64,000 bases of DNA from Porphyridium purpureum. Lineage: Eukaryota. The translations under genes and the position numbers were made by a program. The first letter of the stretch is position 1; each line of letters opens with the position of its first letter. This document shows positions 27,900 through 62,729 of the stretch, in pieces. Location: assembly GCA_008690995.1 (NCBI GenBank), contig VRMN01000001.1, forward strand, positions 620,001-684,000. Reading direction: 5' to 3'. Under the pieces are notes generated by a model, which was not told the DNA's origin, did not search any database, and worked only from the letters and a program-made list of their open reading frames with translations.

Positions 27900-28578
27900 T
27901 GTCAGAGACGTCGTCGCGTTGCGCACCGTTTGCACTTGTTCGCACCGACGCCGTACTCGCACCAACTGTCAGGCAAGTATAGATGCCCAGGCACGCCGAC
28001 ACAAGGTCGCGCACTCGGCGGCTGTGATCTGCCGGTGCGCAACGGCTGCGCGTGTCCCGCTCTGCGCCCACCGACACGCACGTCCACGCCGTCCCCAATC
28101 TCCAACCTGCCCAACGGCGCAACCACCCATACACGATCCACGCCACACACACCTCCGCAGCGTTCTGCCCTGCTGCAGCCTTGCCCCTCCCCCTGCTTCC
28201 CTGCGTGCACCGCGCAGCGACCCGCCTGTTCTGCAACGCTGTGTTCTCCGTCCCACAACCTCCCCCTGCTCCCTGCTCCCTGCTCTCTCCTCTGTCCCAC
28301 CACACGCACCACACACACCCGTCACACCCGCCGCACACGTTCTGCACCACGCCGCCTCTCCACCCTCCCTCCCATCAACCACGCACCAGCATCACACACC
28401 CCACCCACACACCCTTACCTCTCTCTCTCTCCCTCACTCCCACTCAAACCATCCACCACTCTTTACTCTCACACACACCACTTTCATTTCCACCCGCACT
28501 CGCCCCTCTCGTTTCCCTCGTCTCTCCGCTTGTGCTTCTTGTCCCCACTCCATCATCACCATGATCACCAGCACTATA

Positions 28579-28610
28579 CTACTACTACTACTACTAGTAT
28601 GTAGTAGTAA
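28579..28610. repeat. (CTA)n microsatellite followed by inverted (GTA)n, inside a CA-rich low-complexity intergenic region
   Basis: ctactactactactactagtatgtagtagtaa. Confidence 0.7.
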
Positions 28611-29326
28611 TACGACTCCAAGTCCCAATTGTGTACTAGACGCTTTCCGCCACACCGCTTGTGCTGAGTGTGTAAATTACACAAACCCACCAACCCTCAT
28701 CAGTATACTAGCCCATACATGAATAACGCCACACAAACAACACATAGCAACCAGCGACAACACGTTCAGCGTCTCGCATCACGGCACGAACACGCGCGCA
28801 CAAACATGAGCGCACGCACGAGCAACACGCAAAACGCCCATCGCTCCATCGCTTCGTTTGTCTGTCGGTCTGGTTCATATCAAAAATAGTGCGCTGTGTG
28901 AGCAGCGTGTCTCGCTGTACTTGCGGTACACTTGGGACTGGCGCATCGGTGGAAATTCTGCCACTGTACCGAAACGGTACGCGAAGTGTACATCTGCTGT
29001 ACCTCGCTCTGCGCGTGCGCGCGAAAACGCAGAGAAACCGGAAAGTTGGCGCGAGATGGAAGAAGCGGAAGGGGGAGAGGGTGTGGGTGATGGAGGGGTG
29101 GGCGTCGGTGGGAGATGGATGGTGAGTGAGGATCATGTGTGTGCGCGGTGGTGTTGGGTGGGTAGGAAGTGGCGCCGCGCAGGAGCGACTTGGGCTGAGT
29201 AGCGTGGTGTGGGTGGGCCGGTGTGGACGGTTGCTGGTGTGTGCGCGTCGTCGCGCGCAGTCGCCGCCGAGCTGGCCGACTGGTGCAGGTGGGGTGCGGG
29301 GGAGTGCGCAAAGGAGAGGGTTGGGC

Positions 29327-30184
29327 ATGGCGTCGCAAAAGAGAATCACGGCGTTCTTCAAGCGCAAGCTTCCGGACGACGACGAGCCCGCCGCCGGTAA
29401 GGGCGCGCCGGTCTCTCAGGACAACGCCAGGGTCGTCAAGCGCGCCATGAAGAGCGCGGCGCGTCTCGAATCGTCAGACAAGCTGCCCGATCACGCGCTG
29501 GTGCGGCTCGTGCCCGAAACATGGGCCCCAGTGCTGGCTCCGCATATGTGCTCGCCGAGCTTTGTTGCGCTGTTGGCGTTTTTGGATCGAGAGTCGGCGC
29601 AGGGCAAAACCATCTACCCTCCCGCGCCTCTGGTGTTTTCTGCCTTGAGCGTCGTGCCGCTCTCAAATTGCAAGGTCGTTATTCTAGGCCAGGACCCGTA
29701 CCACCAGCCCCGCCAGGCGCACGGAATGAGCTTCAGCGTCCCGCCGGGCGTGCCACCGCCACCGTCACTCATGAATATTACAAAGGAGCTGCATGATGAC
29801 ATGGGATATGCAGAGCATGAGCGCGCTCGACATGGCTCGCTGGTGAAATGGGCCAGCCAGGGCGTGCTCTTGCTGAACGCCGTCTTGACTGTCGAGGCCA
29901 GTAAGCCGAACAGCCACACCGGAAAAGGCTGGGAGGAGTTTACCGATGCAATCATAGACGCCGTGAACGTGCATTCTGATCATGTGGTCTTTTTGCTCTG
30001 GGGTGCGTACGCAAAGAAGAAGGGTTCTCGCATTGACCGCTCAAAGCACACGGTACTTGAATCGGCGCATCCGTCGCCGCTCAGCGCGAACCGCGGCGGT
30101 TGGTTTGGATGCAAACACTTCAGCAAGACCAACGACGCTCTTCGTGCGCATGGCATGCAGGAGATTAATTGGCGGCTCACATAG
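29327..30184 (+). CDS. UNG: Uracil-DNA glycosylase, family 1
   Basis: GQDPYH, GVLLLNAVLTV, HPSPLS; N-terminal PIP box QKRITAFF. Confidence 0.97.
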   Translation: MASQKRITAFFKRKLPDDDEPAAGKGAPVSQDNARVVKRAMKSAARLESSDKLPDHALVRLVPETWAPVLAPHMCSPSFVALLAFLDRESAQGKTIYPPAPLVFSALSVVPLSNCKVVILGQDPYHQPRQAHGMSFSVPPGVPPPPSLMNITKELHDDMGYAEHERARHGSLVKWASQGVLLLNAVLTVEASKPNSHTGKGWEEFTDAIIDAVNVHSDHVVFLLWGAYAKKKGSRIDRSKHTVLESAHPSPLSANRGGWFGCKHFSKTNDALRAHGMQEINWRLT

Positions 30185-30517
30185 AGCCGCGAAAAGTACT
30201 TGATTTTCCCTGTTTGTAGGTTCTGATTCGGTCGGCCTCGTCTGCCAGCCAAGCCAAAGGCCGCGGCCACCATTGCGGGCTGCGGGCTGCGAATCTAGAG
30301 ATGTCATCGAGAGGCCAGGCCGGCCCGCAATCGTCCCTACATACGTTTACCCTAAATTTTATGAAGTACAAACTTTTTCGAGTGGAATATTGGAGTTGCC
30401 GCGAACCGGTCGAATCGACGGGCGACCGCGGCAGGCTACCACCGTGGATCACCGTCTGCCTACCCCCTGCTTGCTCGCACACTTGGCGTCGCGTGCGTAT
30501 GCGAATGCGCGAGCGCC

Positions 30518-31370
30518 ATGTTCGCTTTGGTGATTCCTGGACGCCCAGTGATTGCCCAGTTCGCGCAAGTATGTACGCGTCGCTCTCTCGTTTATCCTTT
30601 TCGTTGCTGGGATTATACAAGCCCTGACGCGTGCGCACGTCGCTGAGCCGTCACTAATCGAACTGCGCTCATTCTCTTGTTGTTCTGGGGCTCCTCTGCA
30701 TTATTGCATTCGTCTCGCTCGTGATGGTGTCTGCGACATACCGGTCTAGATAAGCCCAGATCGCCTGCTAGCAGAGGTGGCGGACGCAGATCGCATACAT
30801 GAAGTGTGTTTCTGTCTGCTGCCTGGAAATGTCCTGCCGGAGGGCATGATGAGCTCACTGTATATTAGGTACGTTGTGGCTTTCAAGAACGTTGAAACTT
30901 ATGGGCAGGTGGTGAACCATTCGGCTCGTTGGGCTGTATCTAACAAAGACGTGCTTCCGACTCGTTGATTGAATTGTCATGAACTTGCCGCATCACATTC
31001 GAGCAGTCTGCCGCCATACTCTGACTGGATGCGCATCGGAAGTATTAGTAACTATTCGCCGAGCCTCATGGCGATGGTAAAGTGGAAAACGTTGCCTGGG
31101 GTGGGCAGCCCCGCACAATTTGGAATAAGCGCGGAAACCGCGAACAGCACCTGGATGGGCCCAGTAAGTGCCACGAGCGACTCTATGTTTTCATTGGAGG
31201 AACGGCGCGAGTTTTCGAAAGCGATCGCCACCGACCTCCTGCGCTACCTGAGCTCCTTTGGGCATGTGGGCGACCAGGGTGTCCAGATGCTTGACACATG
31301 GTTCACAAAGTTCTCGCGCAAGATGGACATGGACCCAGACTACTGGAAGCGCGTGCTTTTGAAGGATTAG
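30518..31370 (+). CDS. HIKESHI: Hikeshi/OPI10 (DUF775) homolog, 3 exons: 30518-30568, 30750-30868, 31007-31370 (177 aa)
   Basis: Introns are GTATGT...TAG and GTACGT...CAG with CTAAT/CTAAC branch-like sites. The spliced ORF reads MFALVIPGRPV...W.RIGSISNYSPS...GISAE...DLLRYLSSF...WFTKFSRKMDMDPDYW. Confidence 0.88.
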
Positions 31371-31450
31371 TGCAGCCACGGTACGATATATTGTACAGAC
31401 TGGAACACAAGGCCAGTTCTCTCTGAACACCGTTTCTGCGATCGAAATAA

Positions 31451-31474
31451 TGTGGTGCGTAAATACACCGTTTT
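31451..31474 (-). other. Putative histone 3' stem-loop element of H2A
   Basis: AAAACGGTGTATTTACGCACCACA, identical to the element downstream of H2B. Confidence 0.7.
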
Positions 31475-31628
31475 TCGTTCCTCCGAAGCGGCCATGCCGC
31501 GTCCGAATCGTCTTCTCTTTGTGGTTTTTCATTTTTAAGATATTTCTTCGTCCGCCTTGTCTTCCTTGTCGTGCGTCCCTCATTCAATTACCGAGACAAC
31601 AGGAGACCATCGTTTTGGGTCAGGCGAC

Positions 31629-32009
31629 TTACAACTCCTGCGACGCGTCCTTGCCCTTCTTCTTTGGCATGAGGACGGCGTGAATGTTCGGCAGCACACC
31701 ACCGGCGGCGATGGTCACACCAGACAGAAGCTTGTTGAGCTCCTCATCATTGCGCACCGCCAGCTGCACATGGCGCGGAATAATGCGAGTCTTCTTGTTA
31801 TCACGCGCGGCGTTGCCCGCCAACTCCAGCACCTCAGCCGTCAAGTACTCCATCACGGCCGCCATGTACACTGGCGCGCCTGCTCCAACGCGGTCTGCGT
31901 ACCCACCCTTCTTCAGATGACGATGGATCCTGCCCACTGGGAACTGCAACCCGGCCTTCTTGGTTCGGCTCATTGCCGCCTTGCGCTCTTTTGCATCCTT
32001 TGGCGCCAT
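31629..32009 (-). CDS. H2A: Histone H2A with C-terminal SQEL (H2A.X-type)
   Basis: [36 protein letters not shown] terminus. Confidence 0.98.
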
Positions 32010-32465
32010 CTTGATGTCTGATTATTCCTTTCCAATAACCACGTCCTCACTGATACCCCCAAAATGTTCTGCTTCTTCGCCTGCACCAAGCACTTGTTAC
32101 CTTCTTCCGCCCCTGCCCCAACCGAGTCGCTTCGTTTTTATACCCCAACCGCGTCGCACCCAGTTTCGCGCGGCGTCTTCTGATTGGATAAAAATCACTC
32201 TCCAAAAATGAACGTGTTTGTATACACAAAACGACACTTACTAATAAAATGCGTTCATTTTATGATTTTGTGCGCATGAAGTACAGTTGAAAACCGACGC
32301 GCAACGCGCGGGTATAAAACTGGCGCGAGTGCTGCGGCTGGGAGTGTGGGAGAGACGGCTGGGAGTGTGGGAGAGAAGGCGGGGATCACGGAGACCAAGG
32401 AAGAGCAGAGAAGAATAGGAGAAGAAGGAGAGAAGGCCGGTAAGTGAAGCGTTTGGACAATTAGG
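32010..32465. promoter_or_regulatory. Bidirectional H2A/H2B promoter
   Basis: Opposed GGGTATAAAA boxes near 32135-32144 (-) and 32310-32319 (+), ATTGG near 32183, GTACAGT at 32281, and a 21-bp tandem duplication at 32335-32376. Confidence 0.7.
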
Positions 32466-32840
32466 ATGGCGCCAAAGGGAACTAAGAGCCTGCCGGTGGC
32501 TGAAAAAAAGCCAAAGCAGGTGATCAAGAAGGATGATGACAAGAAGAGCAAGAAGAAGAAGCGCACCGAGTCGTACAGCATCTACATCTACAAGGTGCTC
32601 AAGCAGGTGCACCCCGACACCGGGATTTCGTCCAACGCCATGTCCATCATGAACTCGTTCGTGACGGATTTGTTCGAGCGTATTGCGGCCGAAGCAGCCA
32701 AGTTGTCGTCGTATTCCAAGACGAAGACCCTCACGTCGCGCGAAATTCAGACTGCCGTCAGGCTGTTGCTTCCGGGTGAGCTGGCGAAGCACGCCGTCTC
32801 GGAGGGAACCAAGGCCGTGACCAAGTACTCGAGCTCCTAA
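32466..32840 (+). CDS. H2B: Histone H2B
   Basis: [51 protein letters not shown]. Confidence 0.98.
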
Positions 32841-32989
32841 GCCATTCGCCGGTGACATTCCACAAGTGCAAGGTGCGAGTGAACAAGGTACCGAAGAGGC
32901 GAATGTGGAGAACGGAACCAAAACAAAAATTCGAAAAGACCATAAAAGAGAAGTCGGAGACGAAACACATTTGCTGTTTCGAATACAAC

Positions 32990-33013
32990 AAAACGGTGTA
33001 TTTACGCACCACA
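32990..33013 (+). other. Putative histone 3' stem-loop element of H2B
   Basis: AAAACGGTGTATTTACGCACCACA, about 150 nt after the stop codon. Confidence 0.7.
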
Positions 33014-33409
33014 ATACGTTGCAAAGAAACGAAATCAGTTGTCACCATATGTGACAATTTGACGCAAGCTAAGACTACTTGAAGAGTCTAGCTCAAACAT
33101 TACTCAACGCCTTCCCGTCGCGGCTCGCTCGTGCCCATCCGCGGCTGTTATCGCTGTGTGTCTCAATCTGATTGTTGGCAAGTGACCAGACCATTCAGTT
33201 CGCAGACAGGATTGTTCAACAACAGGACGCAGCTTCCAACAGGGGCATGGTGGGAGCAGCGCGTTCCGAAGACCACAGGGCGGAGCCGTACGACCAATGC
33301 GCTTTGTTCCAAGTCTGATGGAGTGGCATTGGTGCTATCCCTTTGTTAATTCTTTCCACTAAGTCTACAGGAAAAGCCACACACACGTCATCAGGCGCCA
33401 CGCCTTCCA

Positions 33410-36400
33410 CTAAATCTTTCCTACCTCATCGAGCGGACACACCTCAATCTCGCCGCCTTGGCTTCTAATGACCGCTTGAATACCACCTGTCGCATCGTCC
33501 TTATCGATCGCGATCATCTCACCCTCAAACCCTTGTTTGCTTCCGACCAAGACACGAACCTGGTCACCTTTCGAGGGTGAAACAAGCGTCAGCGAGGCAA
33601 CCCGTGTGTCCTCTAGCGCATCCTTTGCAAGCTTGACAGACGCGATACTTCCAGAAACGCTCAGTACTTGCCCCTCCTTTCTAGTTCCTCCGGCAAATAA
33701 CGACACTGCGAGACCCACAAGAAGGCCACTCGCGAGTCGCGACAGATCCACGCCACCCGCTCCGCGCCCTGAACCATTCGGCTCTGTGGCGGCGGAGACC
33801 GGAACAGGAACAGCTGCTGCTGCACCAACGTACGAATAATCAAGGTCCCGATCAAAGCCTGGCGTCTCTGGCCTAGCCGAGTGGGACGGCGTGGCCGCTC
33901 CGGCGTACATTGGCGTTCTCGATCCCGGCGCCGAGTAGAGGTCCGTCTCGTATGATGCCCCTGCCCCTATCGAACGACCGGATGAAACGTTCAATGTACT
34001 GGCAGCGGGCGGGCGAAACGCACTTCTTGATGAAAATTGAGAGCCACCTGTGCCCGCGTGCGAGAATGCATTGGCACCATTAAAGAGTTTTGGGTTATTA
34101 TTACCCGCCTGTACAAGTGAAGCATTCGCGTCCACTGGTGCCACCATGTCACGCGGTAGGTTCAGCTTCTTACTCTTACTGTCCAGCTCAATCGTAACCT
34201 TGTTACCTGACGCTCCCACCACCCGTCCGCGATGGCCTTTGTAGTCACCCTTCTTGATACGGACAAATTTCTCCAAGAGTTCGTCCTTCACCATACCTGG
34301 ACGCGAGCCCGGCCCAAATGCGCCTCCTCCACTCATTGGTGGTTTGTTGCCTGACGAGCCAAAGCCGCCAAAGCCTCCGCCTGTTCCCAACCCCACTCCT
34401 CCATTCGAGACGCCACGTGAAAAGCCACCCGTGCCTTCAAAACCACCTGTCCCACCACCAGCACGGAACCCGGCGGTATGGCCGCCTGCCCCTGATGCAC
34501 TGAAGCGAGAGCGGAAACTAGCACCGCCACCGGCGCCCGTCTGCAGTGCGGCGCTGCTTCGTCCGACACCTTCTAGCGCGACATCATTTGAGCTCACCGC
34601 CAGCACGCCCGCATTCTCGACCTCATCCTTTGCTTGGAAAAATACCGTCGCGTTCATCATTTGCTTTACAAAGCCCGAACGTCCAACGTGCGGACCTTCA
34701 ACTACACGAACGGAATCGCCTTCTTTCAATTGAACTTGATTTCTGTCAAAGCACGTCCGTTTCACCTGAAATGATTGAATTTTGTCCACAGCATCCAGTT
34801 CGTAAGAGCGGACTTTCCCCTTCTCATTCATGATTCGCACACTGTCCGATGAAACCTTGACAACAATGCCACCGAGACTCCGATTCTGCTGGGGACTGAC
34901 GAGGTCGAACAGAGCAAACTCAGTGTGAGCTTGATTCACGGACGCTCCGTTCGCGCCGCCAGATGCGGCGGCATCGGCCGCGCGGCGTCGGGCGCCTGAT
35001 GCAATGAACTCTGAGCTTTCGACAAGCGCGTTCGCCTTCACCGTCACGTCTTCCTTTGAGCTGTCAGCAAAAATCGTCACCAAGTCACCGTCCACATTGA
35101 CCACCATGCCTGTCTTTCCTTCGTGTTCTCCGTGCAGTACCTTGACATGCGTGCCCTCAGAAAAGTGCTTGGACAAGTCCCATGTCTTCCAGTCGTAAAT
35201 ATCCAGCAAACCTAGCGATCGGTCGACAAGCCGGATCATACAATTCTCGTTCGAAACAGAAATTAATTTGGCCACCAGACCTTTAAATTCATTTTTCGGG
35301 ATCACCGCCATATCACCAGGGTAAAACGTGGCGATCGACTGGATCCCTGACTGCTTGAGGCCGAGGTCGCGCTCCCGGTCGTCGTAGTCATTGAGCGTGT
35401 CCTCATCTTCGTCCTCATTCTTCCGCTGCCTTTCCTTCATGAGCTGCTCAGCACTTTCGAAAAGAGCAAGTTCCTCCGCTTTGGGAATGACGCCGCTCCC
35501 ATGAACAATCATACGACGGGTCAAGTGCTTGTACACAAGTGAGTGCTTGAAGAGTTGTTTGTCGAATTCATCAAATACCTCGCCCGTATATCTGTGGTCC
35601 CGATGTACTCCCACACTCTGGCCCAACTCTCGTTCCACCTCTTCCTTGATAAAAAGCTTCTGTGGCATTCTGCGTTTGACCAATTCTTTCGCCCTGCTTC
35701 GCTCCACAGATGCGACCTCGTCCTCGTCCTCCTCGTCTTCGGCGTTTCTCTGCACCAATTCCCTGGCCCTCATGGTCTGAAAATCAAGACGTGGAATGAG
35801 TCGAACCGTCACACAGCGCTCCGCGGGACCTCCCGGTCGAACTTCGAACACCTGCGCCAGATCGCCATTGTACTCGTTGCGCGCTTGGCGGATGCGCACC
35901 CAGTCGCCCTTTTTAATGTCCTCCTGCTTCATGGGCACGGCCAACACATCTTTCATTTCTCCCAGTGGCACAACTTTGATTTGATTTTCGTACGCGCTCA
36001 AGAGCTGCATGCCCTTGCACGCAATTTCCACCGCGTCCTTCTTGGCGGCTTCCACGTAGATAAAGCCCTTGAGGTGCTCTGGAGCCACCGCTGAGGTGAT
36101 CGTGAGTGGCATATTTCGCTTGATCATGTTAAAATGCTTTTGCAGCAGACATATGACCGCCTCTCGCTCACGGCCAGGCTTGCACGGCACTTTGTACAAC
36201 TTGGGATCGTCTGGCGTCGGTTCTGGGCCTTCTTGGAATGGAATTGCTTCATCTTCGTCAAGACTCCATTCGTCTTCCATCTGGTCAAACCTATCGTACC
36301 GCTCTTTGAGCGCGCGTTCCAATTCCTCCGGATCGCCAACCTCATTGGCCAGCTCGCGGCGCATGCGCTGCGCCCGAGCCACGTGCTCGGATGCGGCCTC

Positions 36401-55765: not shown

Positions 55766-56733
55766 CGTCGTACAATCCGCCACACCCACTCTTCCGTTCC
55801 CTTCTCTTCAACCCGTTTACTTTCTCTCCCGTTCTCTTGTTTCCCCCTCTAGCACAACTCCACTCACTTTCCGCACCATCAACTCCGGTTCCATCTTTAC
55901 TTTTTTTTTGAACCGTTTTGGAGCACTGTACACTACACCAAACGCCGTTCCGTGTACTGTACCCTACTCGTTTTGTGGATGAAATCAGTGGGCTAGCGGC
56001 AATTCGCCAGAATCATTTCATACGCGCGGTGGCGTTTTTCAAAACAACGCACGCCCATATGAAAAAAACGCACGTTTCTATATGAGGCGATATTGGGGAC
56101 AACACTTCTGTTTTCACTGTACCTCTGGTTTGACTTTGGTGGTGGTGTGTGACGAACACGCAAGCCGGGCTGTGACGCACGTCGCATGTGGTGTGGCCGC
56201 GAGTGTGGGACACGCAAGCGGTCGGAGAGGCAGAGGCAGAGGCATGGACAGTGGCGTGGACGTTGGGTTCCTGCAGCTGCGGCTCAACTGGCGTGCATCA
56301 TGCTCGGCTGGATCAACGAGGTGACGCGATTTCGTGACACGAAGATCTCGTGCCGCGGGTGGTTCCGCGCGCATTCGTGGTCAACCGAGCCGTCGCTGAG
56401 CATTTCGCATCACACGCCTGGACAGAAGCGGGTAGCAGCAAAGCAGCAGCAGAAACCGAGAACGCCGACAACAAGGCATTTTCCAGGAACGGCTGGGACT
56501 AGATGGAAAAACTGGAAGGTCGAGAAAGGATGGATAGAGCGAGAGAGAGAGAGAGACTGTATAAAGTTGCTCAACGACAGCGGCGTCGACAAGCAGGCAA
56601 GCAAGCGGCTGCGGCTCGTGCCGGGCGAGTTGCGGCTCAGGTCACAGCCCGAATGATGGCGCATTGAAAAGGCCGAAATCGCGTCTTTAAAATGTGTTCT
56701 TGAATACAAGGCGTTGCGCCAAGAGAACCAGGG

Positions 56734-57538
56734 CATGGATTAAAAGTGTTCCGGTCCGAGAGACGCCCTGGGTGTACACCTAGAGGTACGGCGTCTCGGA
56801 ATTCTTTGAGGTACAGGGGCTTTTTCGCCCGCGTGGTTTTTTACCCTGTACCTCTGGTTTGTGCATTGTTGTCTTTCGCCCCGAGGAGCCGAAGTCGCGT
56901 GTCCGAGGGAAGCAGGAGCCGCTTGGCGGCCGGCCAGCACCCATTGAGCCGCTTGCTGACGTGGCTGGCTGTGGCTTCGTTCGTGGAACGAACGGAGGAA
57001 AGCCCAGCCTTTGGGAGAAATAATTTCTCCCTTCCGCGTCAAGGACAGCAAGGACGGCGGGGTATATAATGGGCGCGGGCCCGTGCGGTTCCCCGGATTT
57101 CTAGAGAGAAGAAGAAGAAGAGGCAAGGGAGTACGACACAGAGAATAAAGGAAGAGTTGTTCTTTGGTGTCGGGTGCCTGGGCGTGGTCGTCGGAAGGCG
57201 TGGGGCCTTTTGCTGAGCCTGTGTAGCAGAGCCAGCAGCACATCGTGTCTGGGGGGTTTCGGTGCTCTTGGAGCACTGAAGGCAGACGGCGGCTTTGTCC
57301 GTTACGACACCCTGCCCCTGTCGAGACCGGTGCTGTCTGTGCCGACGCGAAAGGCAATAGTAGAGGCCCTATACGTTGGATTTTCCACGCCCCGGGTATT
57401 CGTCGTCTGTGTTGTGTGCGTCGTGTGGTTGTGTTCTCTGTGCTGTGTGCGTCGTGTTGCTGGGGTTCGGTCATCTGAGAAGGGTTGTGTCATCCGGGTT
57501 CGTGCGCTTGTCATCATCAAGCGTGCGAGAATTTAAAG
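56734..57538 (+). repeat. 5' LTR (805 bp)
   Basis: Direct repeat of 61924-62729; TATATAA near 57063. Confidence 0.95.
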
Positions 57539-57550
57539 TGGTATCATCGC
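57539..57550 (+). other. Primer-binding site (tRNA-iMet-like)
   Basis: TGGTATCA(TCGC) directly after the 5' LTR. The canonical iMet PBS is TGGTATCAGAGC. Confidence 0.8.
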
Positions 57551-57560
57551 ATCGGCGAAG

Positions 57561-58517
57561 ATGGATTCTGAGGGAATGGACGTGCAGGGCCTGCAGGGCG
57601 GCGCGTCGTGGATTGAAGCTTTCAACCAGCTTCATGCTCGTATCGGAGGACAAGAAATGATGATTGTGCAGCTGCAGGAGGGAAATCGCCTCTTGCAGGA
57701 GATGCTGCAGAATGTGATGCATCAGGCATCTGTGTCAGCTGGTCCCGGCGAAACGGAAAGGACCGTTGCATCGCTGATTGGACGCAGCTTGAGGAAATAC
57801 GACGGACAGCGCGACAAACTCGTTGTGAACGAGTGGTTGTCGAGGATGAAGCAAGACTTGGACATGTGCATGCCAGCTGGAGCGCTGGAGTCTCAGAAGG
57901 TGATCGTAGCGTCGCGCTTCTTTGAGAAGGATGCCGCGCTGTTGTGGGCAGCTCGCCCTGAGGAACAGAGGATGGCACTGGCCGAGTCCGGTTGGAATGC
58001 GTTCGCGAACTTCGTGCGGACGGCATTTGAGCCGCCGCAGGCATACCTGACTGCTCGAACGAACTTGTATCAGCTGAAGCAGGGCAAGATGACTGTTGCT
58101 GAGTTTGAGCAGCGCCTGAGGATGGTGGCCCTGTCAGTGGATAGTGTGACGGATGCCGAGCTCAACACCATCTTCACTCTCGGCCTGAAGGAGAAGCTTC
58201 GCCTTGAGGTGGCGCGTCAGGACACGAAGACGCTGGAAGAGTCGCTGAGGGCGGCGTTGGCTGCGGAGCAGGTTGGTAGGTTTGGAGGAGACATGAGGGA
58301 GGCTTTTCATGGCGCCTCTAGTCCAAACTACCGGAACAGCTCGTCGTATGCCGGGACGGCGCCAATGGATTTGGGCGTCGTGGAGAAACGCCAGCCGGAG
58401 AAGCGCAAGCATGCGGACATGGGCAAAGTCAGATGCTACCATTGCGGGCAGCGCGGCCACATCAAACCCAATTGCCCAAAGCGGAATGGGCACTTGGCGG
58501 GAGGCCCGGGAAACTAA
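57561..58517 (+). CDS. gag: Gag (retrotransposon capsid plus CCHC zinc knuckle)
   Basis: LKQGKMTVAEFEQR, APMDLG, CYHCGQRGHIKPNC. Confidence 0.92.
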   Translation: MDSEGMDVQGLQGGASWIEAFNQLHARIGGQEMMIVQLQEGNRLLQEMLQNVMHQASVSAGPGETERTVASLIGRSLRKYDGQRDKLVVNEWLSRMKQDLDMCMPAGALESQKVIVASRFFEKDAALLWAARPEEQRMALAESGWNAFANFVRTAFEPPQAYLTARTNLYQLKQGKMTVAEFEQRLRMVALSVDSVTDAELNTIFTLGLKEKLRLEVARQDTKTLEESLRAALAAEQVGRFGGDMREAFHGASSPNYRNSSSYAGTAPMDLGVVEKRQPEKRKHADMGKVRCYHCGQRGHIKPNCPKRNGHLAGGPGN

Positions 58518-58569
58518 AACCTCGAGGGAGAAGTTGGGAGGTGCACTCGAGGGGAACGGAACCTCCCGG
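58508..58569 (+). other. -1 programmed ribosomal frameshift signal (slippery heptamer plus H-type pseudoknot)
   Basis: G GGA AAC lies just before the gag TAA. Stem 1 is CCTCGAG/CTCGAGG and stem 2 is GGGAGGT/ACCTCCC. Confidence 0.85.
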
Positions 58570-61500
58570 GATGGGCTTTGTAGGTGAGGTCTGGCGCGCT
58601 GATGCGGCGTCGAGGTTGCTCTACAAGCGTGGAACTTTAGATGGCGAGTCTGTCCAATTTCTGGTGGACAGCGGAGCATCGCACAATTTTCTTGGATCTC
58701 GCTTTGTCGGCAGATTTGAAGGGCCCGAGAACGGAATGGTCAAGCTTGCGGGTGGGCAAAGTGTCTCAGTGCATGGCCCGGTGTTGAAGCATGTTGATCT
58801 TGGGTTCTGGAAAGGGCCGGTCAAGTTTTATGTCGGGCCTCTGCAAATGGATTCAATTCTCGGGTGGGACTGGCTGAGTCGCGTGAACCCGAGGATTGAT
58901 TGGCAGAGGGGTTCGATGGACTTGGAACTTGAAAATGTGGAAGATTGTGCGATGGTAAATGTCGTGGACGCTCTTTCCGAGTCAAGCGGAAATCAAGCGT
59001 ACGATGGAGAAGAGGAGAGTGCCAGTGAAGAGGTCGAAGGAAAGATGGCCGGGATGGAACATGCGTTGACTCACATGCCGATGCGGGATGATTGTGAGAC
59101 GTGTGTTGTGGCCAAGATCAAGAGCCGACCAGCAAGAAGGCTGGAGAAGGACTTGTCCACTTTGTCGTTCAATGACGAAGTTGGGATCGACCTGGTGGAG
59201 CCCGGACGTAACGTGGAAGCCATCGATGGAGCGAAGTACATACTGACGCACATCGATAGAGCGACGAGGTGGGCCACACTGGCAGGATTGAGAGCCAAAA
59301 CGCATACGGCGGTTGCTGAAGCTTGGACAAGCGTGCAAGCCGGGCGAGGATGGCCAAAGGTACTGAGGACAGATGATGGAAACGAGTTCAGGGGAAATGT
59401 GAGCAATTTGGTACGGGAGAATCTCGTGAAGCATGAGATTGGGGTCCCACATAGACCGAATAGCCACGCTGAACAGGAACGTTTCCATCATACTTTGAAT
59501 CAGGGGGTACGAGCAAATCTCCTGCAGTCTGGGCTGGGAAAGCGGTGGTTTTTGCATGCCGCTCAGCATTTCGTCTTCATGTTCAATCGGCTGCACCCAG
59601 ACAAGAGGTCTGGGAAGTCTCCGTATGAAATGAGGTACGGTGAGAGATGGAAGCGGGGGAAGGTAGCAGTACCATTTGGGTGCAAGGTGGTTTTCAAGAA
59701 TGATCAACCTGAGAACAAGTATGCACCCAGAGGAAAGATTGGAGTCCTTGTTGGAGTTGCGGAGCATCCGCTGGCAATCTGGGTCCTTCCTCAGGAGGAG
59801 TGGACGAGTGCGGCACCGAGGCTGACTCGCACTCAGGACTTCAAGGCGTTCCCTGAAGTGTTTCCAATGCGGACTTTGGAAACAAGGGATGACGAGGAGG
59901 TCTCGGCACGTGAGGGTGAAATCGACTTTCACTCTAGGCAGGAAGAACCGGATAGTCAAGAGACTATGGTGTTGCCTACGAATACGGCCGAGGCGCGTGT
60001 GTCCGGGAACTTGGAGGAGGACGTTCCCCTACCTATTGGAAGAAGGGGGAAACGAAAACCCAGTGTAGCTTGGAGCCGGGAAGAGGATCAGGCCATCATG
60101 GATGGCTTACGGCTCTTTGGCTGGGGGAAGTGGGAAAGAACTCTGCAAGAATACAAGGCAGTGTTTCGCAATTCAAGAAACGGAAAGGATGTGCGAGCCC
60201 GGGCCCATAATATGGGCCTCTCGGAGGAAAATTGGAAGCAACGCACAGGAGTTGCTCCAGAAACACCGCAATTGAACTTGACAACTTTGTTGCAGACGAG
60301 CCAAGCTCTAGCTTCTTCGGCTGGAAGAGAAGCCATGCAAAAAGAAGTGGACTTGATGATCCGATTCAAGGTATGGGATGAGCAACCTATTTCAAGGGAA
60401 GAAGCTCTCAAGGTCCCAGGCGCACGATTTGTGCGGACACACTTTATATTCGGATTGAAGTTCGCTGAGCTTCCGGAGGAGTTTCGCAAGGTCAAGTGTC
60501 GGCTTGTTGCTGGTGGAAATAGGATTTGGGATGCCTCAGGGAAGGTCACTCAGGATGTGTTTGACTATGAGGTGCCCGCGGGCCTGTCTGCAATCAGAAT
60601 GCTGATAGCTTTGGCCGCGATCCTGGGATTGAAAATCGTGTCGTTCGATGTGACGTCGGCGTACTTACACGCTGACTTGTCAGGACCACCGACGTTTGCC
60701 ATGTTGCCCCGTCACGTTCCAGGAGGAGGTGATGGACTTGTCGTTCGCTTAAGGAGGGCGCTTTATGGCTTACCAAGAAGCGGGTCTGACTTTTCCATCG
60801 ATGCCCGCAGAAGACTTCAAAAGTTCGGGTGGGATTTGATTCACGGCGAGAAGAACGTATACGTGAAAAAGATGGCGGGAAGTGCATCTGTTGCACTCTT
60901 GGCCTTGTATGTCGACGATGACCTGCTCGCGTGTGCCGAGAAGGATCGGGGTGAGATATTTCGAGAGTTGAGGTCAGAGTTCCTCATTGAGAAGGAGCCA
61001 GAAGTCCTCTCGGAAGGAGCCCCGTTAAGGTTCCTAGGTCTCATGATCTCGGAGTCGGCGACACGGTTTTCGTTGGATCATGATCACTACCAAACCTTGG
61101 TGGTGAAGGAATTTGAAGAAGAGCTTGGGCAGGTGCTGCGAGCAGTGAAGTCACCAGGCGAGAAGATGAATGCTGACGCTGTATTGGATGTTCAAGTCGA
61201 ACATGGGCATCTGAAAATACGCGAGCATGTTGGGAGGCTGCTGTGGTTGGCCAGGACGGTCAGACCGGATATCTCCTACGCAGTTGGAGTGGTGGCTCGG
61301 TATGTGGATAGCTGGAACGTCGCAGCTGAGAGACTCCTGGTTCGCGTCATGCAATACTTGAAGGTTCCTCGTGAGCCACTTGAGTATTTGCGGATGACGT
61401 CATTGAAGGTCGGTGACGTAAGCGTCTTGGGCTATGCTGATGCCGACTTTGCTGGATGCCCGGAAACGCGCAAGTCAACGTCTGGAAGAGTGACGTACTT

Positions 61501-61933
61501 GGTCGCGGGTGGAAACAAGTATCTGGTCGATTGGAGCTCCAGAAGGCAACGCTTTGTTAGCTCTTCGACCTCTGAGTCTGAGATGGCCGCTCTGGAAGAA
61601 ACGGTGCAGTTATCTTTGTTTCCGGCATTGTCGTTTCTTCGAAGCGTGCAGGAGGGGGATTATGCGTTGACCCTGCTTTGTGATAGTCAAGTTGTTCTCC
61701 GTGCGGTCGAGATGGGATATTCGCCAAAGTTGCATCACATGGCAGTAACCAGAGCCACGGACTTGGCGTGGATACACCAAATTTGCGAGAAGCAGAAGTT
61801 GGTGACATTGGAGTATGTGAGGACGGGAGAAAACGTGTCCGACTTGATGACAAAGCCTTTGTTTCCGGAAGGTCACATCAGGTGTTGGAACATGTTACGC
61901 GTCCCTCAGATCGGAAGGAGGAGCATGGATTAA
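58514..61933 (+). CDS. pol: Pol polyprotein PR-IN-Myb-RT-RNaseH, in the -1 frame relative to gag
   Basis: LVDSGAS; HALTH...CETC; IDL/TDDGNEF/QER DDE triad; FDVTSAYL, LYGLPRSG, YVDD; YADADFAG..ETRKSTSG. Confidence 0.95.
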   Translation, partial: LKPRGRSWEVHSRGTEPPGMGFVGEVWRADAASRLLYKRGTLDGESVQFLVDSGASHNFLGSRFVGRFEGPENGMVKLAGGQSVSVHGPVLKHVDLGFWKGPVKFYVGPLQMDSILGWDWLSRVNPRIDWQRGSMDLELENVEDCAMVNVVDALSESSGNQAYDGEEESASEEVEGKMAGMEHALTHMPMRDDCETCVVAKIKSRPARRLEKDLSTLSFNDEVGIDLVEPGRNVEAIDGAKYILTHIDRATRWATLAGLRAKTHTAVAEAWTSVQAGRGWPKVLRTDDGNEFRGNVSNLVRENLVKHEIGVPHRPNSHAEQERFHHTLNQGVRANLLQSGLGKRWFLHAAQHFVFMFNRLHPDKRSGKSPYEMRYGERWKRGKVAVPFGCKVVFKNDQPENKYAPRGKIGVLVGVAEHPLAIWVLPQEEWTSAAPRLTRTQDFKAFPEVFPMRTLETRDDEEVSAREGEIDFHSRQEEPDSQETMVLPTNTAEARVSGNLEEDVPLPIGRRGKRKPSVAWSREEDQAIMDGLRLFGWGKWERTLQEYKAVFRNSRNGKDVRARAHNMGLSEENWKQRTGVAPETPQLNLTTLLQTSQALASSAGREAMQKEVDLMIRFKVWDEQPISREEALKVPGARFVRTHFIFGLKFAELPEEFRKVKCRLVAGGNRIWDASGKVTQDVFDYEVPAGLSAIRMLIALAAILGLKIVSFDVTSAYLHADLSGPPTFAMLPRHVPGGGDGLVVRLRRALYGLPRSGSDFSIDARRRLQKFGWDLIHGEKNVYVKKMAGSASVALLALYVDDDLLACAEKDRGEIFRELRSEFLIEKEPEVLSEGAPLRFLGLMISESATRFSLDHDHYQTLVVKEFEEELGQVLRAVKSPGEKMNADAVLDVQVEHGHLKIREHVGRLLWLARTVRPDISYAVGVVARYVDSWNVAAERLLVRVMQYLKVPREPLEYLRMTSLKVGDVSVLGYADADFAGCPETRKSTSGRVTYLVAGGNKYLVDWSSRRQRFVSSSTSESEMAALEETVQLSLFPALSFLRSVQEGDYALTLLCDSQVVLRAVEMGYSPKLHHMAVTRATDLAWIHQICEKQKLVTLEYVRTGENVSDLMTKPLFPEGHIRCWNMLRVPQIGRRSMD
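61913..61923 (+). other. Polypurine tract
   Basis: GGAAGGAGGAG immediately before the 3' LTR. Confidence 0.8.
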
Positions 61934-62729
61934 AAGTGTTCCGGTCCGAGAGACGCCCTGGGTGTACACCTAGAGGTACGGCGTCTCGGAATTCTTTGAG
62001 GTACAGGGGCTTTTTCGCCCGCGTGGTTTTTTACCCTGTACCTCTGGTTTGTGCATTGTTGTCTTTCGCCCCGAGGAGCCGAAGTCGCGTGTCCGAGGGA
62101 AGCAGGAGCCGCTTGGCGGCCGGCCAGCACCCATTGAGCCGCTTGCTGACGTGGCTGGCTGTGGCTTCGTTCTGTGGAACGAACGGAGGAAAGCCCAGCC
62201 TTTGGGAGAAATAATTTCTCCCTTCCGCGTCAAGGACAGCAAGGACGGCGGGGTATATAATGGGCGCGGGCCCGTGCGGTTCCCCGGATTTCTAGAGAGA
62301 AGAAGAAGAAGAGGCAAGGGAGTACGACACAGAGAATAAAGGAAGAGTTGTTCTTTGGTGTCGGGTGCCTGGGCGTGGTCGTCGGAAGGCGTGGGGCCTT
62401 TTGCTGAGCCTGTGTAGCAGAGCCAGCAGCACATCGTGTCTGGGGGGTTTCGGTGCTCTTGGAGCACTGAAGGCAGACGGCGGCTTTGTCCGTTACGACA
62501 CCCTGCCCCTGTCGAGACCGGTGCTGTCTGTGCCGACGCGAAGGGCAATAGTAGAGGCCCTATACGTTGGATTTTCCACGCCCCGGGTATTCGTCGTCTG
62601 TGTTGTGTGCGTCGTGTGGTTGTGTTCTCTGTGCTGTGTGCGTCGTGTTGCTGGGGTTCGGTCATCTGAGAAGGGTTGTGTCATCCGGGTTCGTGCGCTT
62701 GTCATCATCAAGCGTGCGAGAATTTAAAG
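61924..62729 (+). repeat. 3' LTR (806 bp)
   Basis: By eye it differs from the 5' LTR only by a 1-nt indel and one A/G substitution. Confidence 0.95.

Follow-up and report, generated by a model that had tools for sequence, protein, structure and literature searches.

How does a red alga end its histone messages? The question is raised by a divergent pair of histone genes, H2A and H2B, in a stretch of 64,000 nucleotides from Porphyridium purpureum, referred to here as the window, in which the same 24-mer stands behind both genes. The ancestry of tail-less histone mRNAs, and of U7, in plants and algae is under active revision. Direct RNA data on tail-less histone mRNA cover one green alga, one moss, one fern and one cycad; the atlas, in the part of it available here, is without a red alga (PMC13130582). 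The original prediction, made from the DNA letters, held that the element is a histone stem-loop followed by a purine-rich element of the HDE kind, and that it ends the messages independently of poly(A). Judged by its sequence, the element is a histone 3' stem-loop with an HDE, homologous to the algal and plant type and of putative function. The best explanation, to which we give a probability of about 0.55, is a stem-loop ending that depends on SLBP, with polyadenylated escapees.

The H2A-H2B locus and its repeated 24-mer

The genes of the locus, with the region between them and the neighbour that faces H2A, are as follows.

31008..31560, plus strand: convergent Hikeshi-like gene (PF21057), its last exon together with its 3' UTR; 55 reads are spliced, and read depth reaches to about 31560
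31629..32009, minus strand: histone H2A coding sequence, 126 aa, a single ORF (PF00125, PF16211)
32135..32319, no strand assigned: shared promoter region, with TATA-like boxes for both genes and CGCG-rich boxes, read from the sequence
32466..32840, plus strand: coding sequence of histone H2B (124 aa), which diverges from H2A (Pfam; 90% cluster with a Rhodophyta protein)

The H2B protein falls in the same 90% cluster as a protein of the rhodophyte Madagascaria erythrocladioides, and the neighbouring SPT5 has its best named relatives in Timspurckia, Galdieria, Chondrus, Agarophyton and Rhodosorus. Both support the red alga that had been proposed as the source, closest to Porphyridiales. The H2A reads start near 32080-32097. 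The promoter region has one E2F-like site, at 32164-32171; its CGCG-rich and E2F-like boxes fit genes linked to replication. The words CGACGCG and GGGTATAAAA are common to the H2A and H2B promoters (32135-32345), and a short direct repeat of at least 18 nt lies upstream of H2B. Further along the window, at 56600-62700, direct repeats of about 900 bp surround overlapping gag-like (57561-58517) and pol-like (58433-61933) ORFs, by their sequence probably an LTR retrotransposon.

The 24-mer AAAAC-GGTGTA-TTTA-CGCACC-ACA is present in two exact copies, one behind each histone gene, precisely where it had been predicted.

31451..31474, minus strand: H2A copy, with A-rich 5' flank, 16-nt hairpin (31469-31454) and ACA
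32990..33013, plus strand: H2B copy, with A-rich 5' flank, 16-nt hairpin (32995-33010) and ACA

Its start lies 154 nt 3' of the H2A stop and 149 nt 3' of the H2B stop, close to the 150 nt first estimated, which places the first G of the hairpin 159 and 154 nt past the stops, respectively. The two UTRs are otherwise unrelated, as had been claimed: the next-longest word common to the 600-nt 3' flanks is 9 nt, and a weak, A-rich likeness is seen upstream of the 24-mer. Within the 64 kb no further copy was found with up to three mismatches allowed, an exact search of the metagenome contigs gave 0 matches, and the pair is the sole inverted repeat of at least 18 nt in the window. The histone classes followed by the 24-mer are H2A and H2B; H3, H4 and H1 are not represented among the matches in the window. 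Locally there are 12 variants at about 50%, none inside the 24-mer; at this density a variant-free 24-mer is expected more than half the time, and it is therefore not counted as evidence.

A chance match has a negligible probability, given that 0 of 100 shuffled windows held any match and that the copies stand at nearly equal distances past histone stops. It is also very improbable that the element acts at the level of DNA, as the terminal inverted repeats of some mobile element enclosing H2A-H2B or as the site of a DNA-binding terminator. The copies do form an inverted repeat, 1.5 kb apart, but this orientation follows simply from the divergence of the genes, and models of RNA stem-loops with covarying pairs match them. 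A transposon terminal repeat was rejected, the target-site duplication being absent.

Hairpin and purine word compared with known systems

The hairpin folds into five pairs, four Watson-Crick and a U-G wobble at pair 5, with a 6-nt loop. Over 34 nt the folding energy is -6.5 kcal/mol, with a z of about -2. Its 16-nt core reaches -5.0 kcal/mol, against -5.1 to -10.1 in Cycas hairpins in the part of the source available (PMC13130582). At the top of the stem, above the wobble, stands an A-C mismatch. The replacement of the top U-A pair by A-C had been recognised correctly in the original prediction, which missed the wobble. The histone stem-loop family RF00032 has a 6-bp stem and a 4-nt loop, whereas the window hairpin has five pairs and then the mismatch.

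The reference panel for these comparisons came from H2B searches, with 79 metagenome loci (from the best 80 of 506), 57 genome-bin loci and 12 loci of a viral collection. It comprises 258 distinct histone 3' regions of at least 80 nt, both window regions included. A hairpin was found by score in 221 regions (8.8% in shuffles), and 37 regions were without. The 219 foreign hairpins belong to 93 loci and lie at a median of 33 nt from the stop, with only 8 of them at 100 nt or more. The 57 genome-bin loci (L080-L136) stand in GTDB prokaryotic genome records with H2B relatives; many are in eukaryote-type histone clusters with animal-type stem-loops, and they are likely contaminating contigs. A degenerate-pattern match at another locus, L150, lies inside a phage ORF and was taken as chance.

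Most parts of the window hairpin are ordinary in this panel. The flank AAAAC recurs in 44 of the 219 foreign hairpins, the loop UUUA in 29 and the flank ACA in 46; both flanks agree with the panel consensus and are of the expected A/C-rich kind. The window hairpin has a G-C pair in stem position 2, together with the U at loop position 3, which reach 100% and 99% in a panel of 187 sequences and are named as diagnostic in the accessible part of bioRxiv 10.64898/2026.10.14.759114. The stem base GGUG/CACC is found in 15/219 hairpins, some of them from loci with an H2B that falls into clusters with Ostreococcus and Micromonas; the green-algal hairpins vary in loop length and keep GGUG/CACC. An open top pair recurs in only 1/219, and that case looks spurious; the A-C mismatch therefore truly sets the window hairpin apart. 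At 154-159 nt, the window copies stand further from the stop than all 15 GGUG-type hairpins (37-134, median 76) and outside the animal range of about 25-60 nt.

Two models were built from the panel. By sequence alone, a weight matrix made from 187 hairpins of six pairs puts the window copies in third and fourth place among all window positions; among positions with at least 5 pairs they come first and second. A covariance model of 58 foreign hairpins, picked for diversity from 85 candidates, places the copies as the top two in 64 kb, one at 16.9 bits (E 0.027) and the other at 13.4 bits (E 0.37); genuine hairpins of the algal type that did not enter the model reach 10-23 bits. With Rfam RF00032 itself the alignment is full-length, at 14.4 bits against a cut-off of 34 (E 0.13, in an 81-nt search), and a scan of 28000-36000 gave no Histone3 match at E <=10 and three chance matches. 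The GGUG-type hairpins of L022, L025 and L037 likewise fall below the RF00032 cut-off, with one match in seven loci. By its score, its top pair and its distance, the hairpin thus falls outside RF00032 in the strict sense.

The original comparison was with metazoan histone genes, but the closest models are of the algal and plant GGUG...CACC type, rather than the animal GGCYCU type. In this type, known from Chlamydomonas, Physcomitrium, Cycas debaoensis and the Mamiellales loci L037 and L044, the GGUG/CACC stem base is followed by AC, as in the window, and the two also have in common the U-rich loop, the A-rich 5' flank, the AC 3' flank and a CAAAG or CAGAA word 12-16 nt downstream. The departures are the open A-C top pair, the U-G at pair 5, the distance from the stop and the host, a member of Rhodophyta. 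The window hairpin equals one Cycas hairpin, with 97% poly(A)-less reads, at 13/16 positions, differing at 6, 11 and 12, and 23 of the 24 rows listed for Cycas debaoensis are GGUG-starting hairpins with 65-98% poly(A)-less reads (available part of PMC13130582, Table S9). With RF00032, the window hairpin has in common AAAAC, the G-C at stem position 2, U1 and U3 of the loop, ACA, and a purine-rich stretch at about +12 to +20, in the full-length alignment. It differs in the stem (GGUGU/GCACC versus GGYYYU/ARRRCC), in the missing top U-A pair, in the low score and in standing about five times further from the stop than the panel median.

The second part of the element is the purine-rich stretch past each stem.

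31431..31438, minus strand: HDE-like element after H2A, with CAGAA at +16 from the stem, containing the 7-mer AGAAACG (read from the sequence)
33022..33031, plus strand: HDE-like element after H2B, with CAAAG at +12 from the stem, then the 7-mer (read from the sequence)

AGAAACG stands 13 nt (H2A) and 11 nt (H2B) downstream of the 24-mer, within the 11-13 nt of the original prediction, which overlooked that the H2A 7-mer overlaps a 9-nt repeat of the 24-mer's own 5' half. Among control pairs, 0.7-0.9% have a 7-mer in common at that register, and AGAAACG was picked out only afterwards; alone it is therefore modest evidence. The CAAAG/CAGAA word at its conserved spacing supports an HDE-like element better, on sequence grounds. 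The pattern [CG]A[AG]A[AG] lies 7-18 nt past the stem in 31 of 36 foreign hairpins of the GGUG or GGA type, and in both window copies; defined on these same 36 hairpins, it averages 5.8 in 2000 shuffles, with a maximum of 15. Both window copies thus have a purine-rich stretch at the position expected for an HDE, about 10-20 nt past the stem. A search of the window for a U7 candidate gave 25 complements of the 7-mer, none of which has an Sm-like site behind it. Together, the panel, the Cycas match, the covariance model and the spacing of the word support the predicted homologue of the histone stem-loop with an HDE-like element.

Across the panel, histone hairpins of the forms GGATTT...AAATCC and GGTG...CACC have the CAAAG/CAGAA word in common, mostly at +9 to +12 (L010, L011, L018, L019, L023, L032, L056 and L077, and further L022, L025, L037, L046, L049, L061 and L069). 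The word is a candidate, from these sequences, for a conserved U7-pairing core outside animals. We take the GGA-type loci to be diatom-like, although they are without a named cluster member.

The purine element also bears on whether the pair is a decaying relic without present function, its two copies still identical because one gene was recently copied or converted from its neighbour. A relic would fit the A-C mismatch and the wobble, the long distance from the stop, the absence from Bangiales and Cyanidioschyzon described below, and the weak A-rich likeness of the UTRs upstream. However, the identity ends at the known functional limits, 5 nt ahead of the stem and 3 nt behind it, and is not seen again until the HDE position, past spacers that differ in length and sequence. 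Gene conversion is disfavoured, because a conversion tract would not respect such limits, and we hold a relic to be improbable.

RNA reads and the route to the 3' end

Raw reads were taken from one entry (X24), with four runs pooled, about 20% read, on the H2A side; their selection is given only as cDNA. The reads are stranded, the depth of the opposite strand being zero over the H2A coding region. H2A-strand reads cover the coding region to a depth of 55-85. The depth is 62-63 at the hairpin, 85-87 directly past it and 79-87 over the stretch that follows; past about 31280 it is 50-65, within the intron of the Hikeshi-like gene it is still 42, and it extends to at least 30950. No pile-up of read ends was seen at the hairpin or at any single place on the H2A side. 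Assembled contigs of runs X1, X3 and X6 confirm a continuous sequence; RNA ends are not resolvable in contigs.

31324, minus strand: poly(A) addition site of the read-through H2A-strand RNA (4 reads with an untemplated tail; the genome is without a T-run there)

This site lies 127 nt past the H2A 24-mer. Polyadenylated read-through H2A RNA exists, and the reads weigh against a strict poly(A)-independent model. They are not decisive, since tail-less RNA escapes oligo-dT libraries, the read filter may itself cause dips in depth, and H2A does not exceed its neighbour in depth. The poly(A)-independent ending of the original prediction is so far a conjecture: H2A reads cross the hairpin and are tailed downstream, while a poly(A)-selected library would hide tail-less ends. 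The original prediction had named polyadenylation well away from the 24-mer as evidence against it; four H2A reads now provide this in part, from cDNA of unspecified selection. The depth of H2A only equals that of the Hikeshi-like gene; had every mRNA of this histone a tail, we would infer that it should be higher.

The RNA of the Hikeshi-like gene covers the H2A hairpin in antisense, up to about 31560. The H2A read-through RNA and the Hikeshi-like transcript overlap, sense against antisense, over at least 550 nt (30950-31560), an overlap that takes in the hairpin and the last intron of the Hikeshi-like gene.

In the explanation that we prefer, the 24-mer would serve as an algal and plant type 3' stem-loop for histone messages, followed by an HDE-like purine element. 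SLBP would bind the hairpin through the second G-C pair, the uridines of the loop and the A-rich flank, rules of recognition that are in part those of bioRxiv 10.64898/2026.10.14.759114. The red-algal SLBP would need to accept a stem of five pairs and a loop of 6 nt, and that it binds this hairpin is quite probable. The purine word would place a cut of the CPSF73 type just past ACA, perhaps through a U7-like RNA. Cleavage a few bases past the stem would release tail-less H2A and H2B mRNAs, and transcripts escaping it would run on and be polyadenylated further down. We lean slightly towards cleavage after the ACA flank as a main route; that the purine element pairs with a U7-like RNA we hold to be somewhat less likely than not. 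Since the hairpin and downstream signal are the same as in histone genes of green algae and cycads, part of the histone messages is likely tail-less.

The same reads would suit another role, in which the hairpin binds SLBP as an internal element of the UTR, cleavage and polyadenylation of most mRNAs take place downstream of it, and SLBP steers translation or decay. Every H2A RNA seen passes the hairpin to a poly(A) site 127 nt beyond, the distance from the stop is unusually long, and the top of the stem is weakened. SLBP with polyadenylation and without U7 has been proposed for early-diverging fungi as an 'intermediate state', in the part of bioRxiv 10.64898/2026.10.14.759114 available. Yet both copies carry an HDE-like element at conserved spacing, which has no obvious use without cleavage, the read-through is without a single dominant end, and tail-less ends would be invisible if the libraries were poly(A)-selected. 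We consider this role unlikely, although less so than a relic.

A stem-loop ending with escapees has parallels. In the accessible parts of the sources, some histone genes of Physcomitrium give tailed and tail-less forms (PMC13130582), and stem-loop-bearing histone mRNAs of Physarum have poly(A)+ forms, with both signals together (PMC8600027). Like these dual-signal mRNAs and those of early-diverging fungi, the window H2A combines a stem-loop and downstream polyadenylation in one gene. It differs from them, and from Cycas with its measured poly(A)-less reads, in being seen as the polyadenylated read-through form only.

Distribution and meaning of the hairpin

Two other red-algal loci were compared, one from Bangiales (L001) and one that carries the H2B of Cyanidioschyzon merolae (L002). 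Their H2A/H2B pairs have no common motif or matching hairpin within 700 nt, and no match to the covariance model at E <=10. In this sample of three H2A/H2B pairs, the hairpin is patchy in Rhodophyta. SLBP, LSM10 and LSM11 have been reported in red algae, with the species unnamed in the text (bioRxiv 10.64898/2026.10.14.759114). The portion of that text available describes no red-algal hairpin; 'Porphyridium' and 'Rhodophyta' have 0 occurrences in its main text, and its supplements may list the two window loci. Searches with the SLBP family PF15247 matched 0 of 5, 0 of 3 and 0 of 1 genomes or records; the controls of the family gave no match either, so nothing follows about absence. A literature search, over sources available in part, found no paper describing a red-algal histone stem-loop. 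What is new here is the hairpin variant in a red alga; what was already reported is the presence of SLBP and LSM10/11.

While relatives were being sought, the viral collection was searched with the pattern GGTGTT-NTTN-AACACC-ACC, which matched 8 stretches: five small CRESS-type contigs, one with two copies, and a giant-virus-like locus represented twice. With that locus counted once there are seven matches, and six of them stand 9-31 nt past a stop codon on the sense strand. An arm-swapped pattern, two animal-type patterns and a GGTGTC variant each gave 0 matches in this control. The CRESS-DNA contigs (L151, L153, L154, L155 and L156; 2.0-3.5 kb) carry a perfect algal-type stem-loop with an A-rich 5' flank and an ACC 3' flank. 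Viral_Rep (PF02407) is confirmed in all of them except L153, which has a Rep-like ORF and a hairpin 86 nt from the contig end, so that the gene upstream of it is out of view.

472-497 and 2156-2181 of L151: hairpin copies, after both the Rep and the putative capsid genes

The hairpin follows the Rep stop in L151, L155 and L156 and the putative capsid gene in L151 and L154; the capsid-side copy of L151 scores 36 bits with the histone covariance model. In the giant-virus-like locus (L152, and L157 at 1499-1524; 44 kb contigs), a hairpin lies 29 nt past the stop of a 142-aa ORF without a Pfam match, upstream of a glycosyltransferase; an SLBP search of one record gave no match. The sequences of the CRESS contigs suggest that ssDNA viruses of algae or protists may end their mRNAs like the histone mRNAs of their hosts, which, if true, would tie viral expression to S phase. 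No paper on histone-type hairpins in such viruses was found in the literature, as far as it was available, and this lead may matter more than the histone finding.

For the alga itself, we rate the gain as moderate, since red algae had already been reported to have SLBP and LSM10/11 and the function here is putative. A further reaching possibility, which we regard as doubtful, is that Porphyridiales keep a complete, working SLBP/U7 pathway, with an SLBP co-evolved for a hairpin of five pairs and a 6-nt loop 150 nt from the stop, and an undescribed U7 RNA whose 5' end pairs with (A)AGAAACG, the pathway having been lost independently in Bangiales and Cyanidioschyzon. If this were true, the CAAAG/CAGAA core, which green-algal hairpins and others outside animals have too, would mark where an ancestral U7-HDE duplex formed, and it would provide a concrete query for non-animal U7 RNAs. 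The open top pair offers a test of how fixed the recognition by SLBP is. In a red alga that can be cultured and has a gene-compact genome, one identical hairpin and a sharp 7-nt word open two questions to testing: do Rhodophyta still produce tail-less histone mRNA, and what form does U7 take outside animals?
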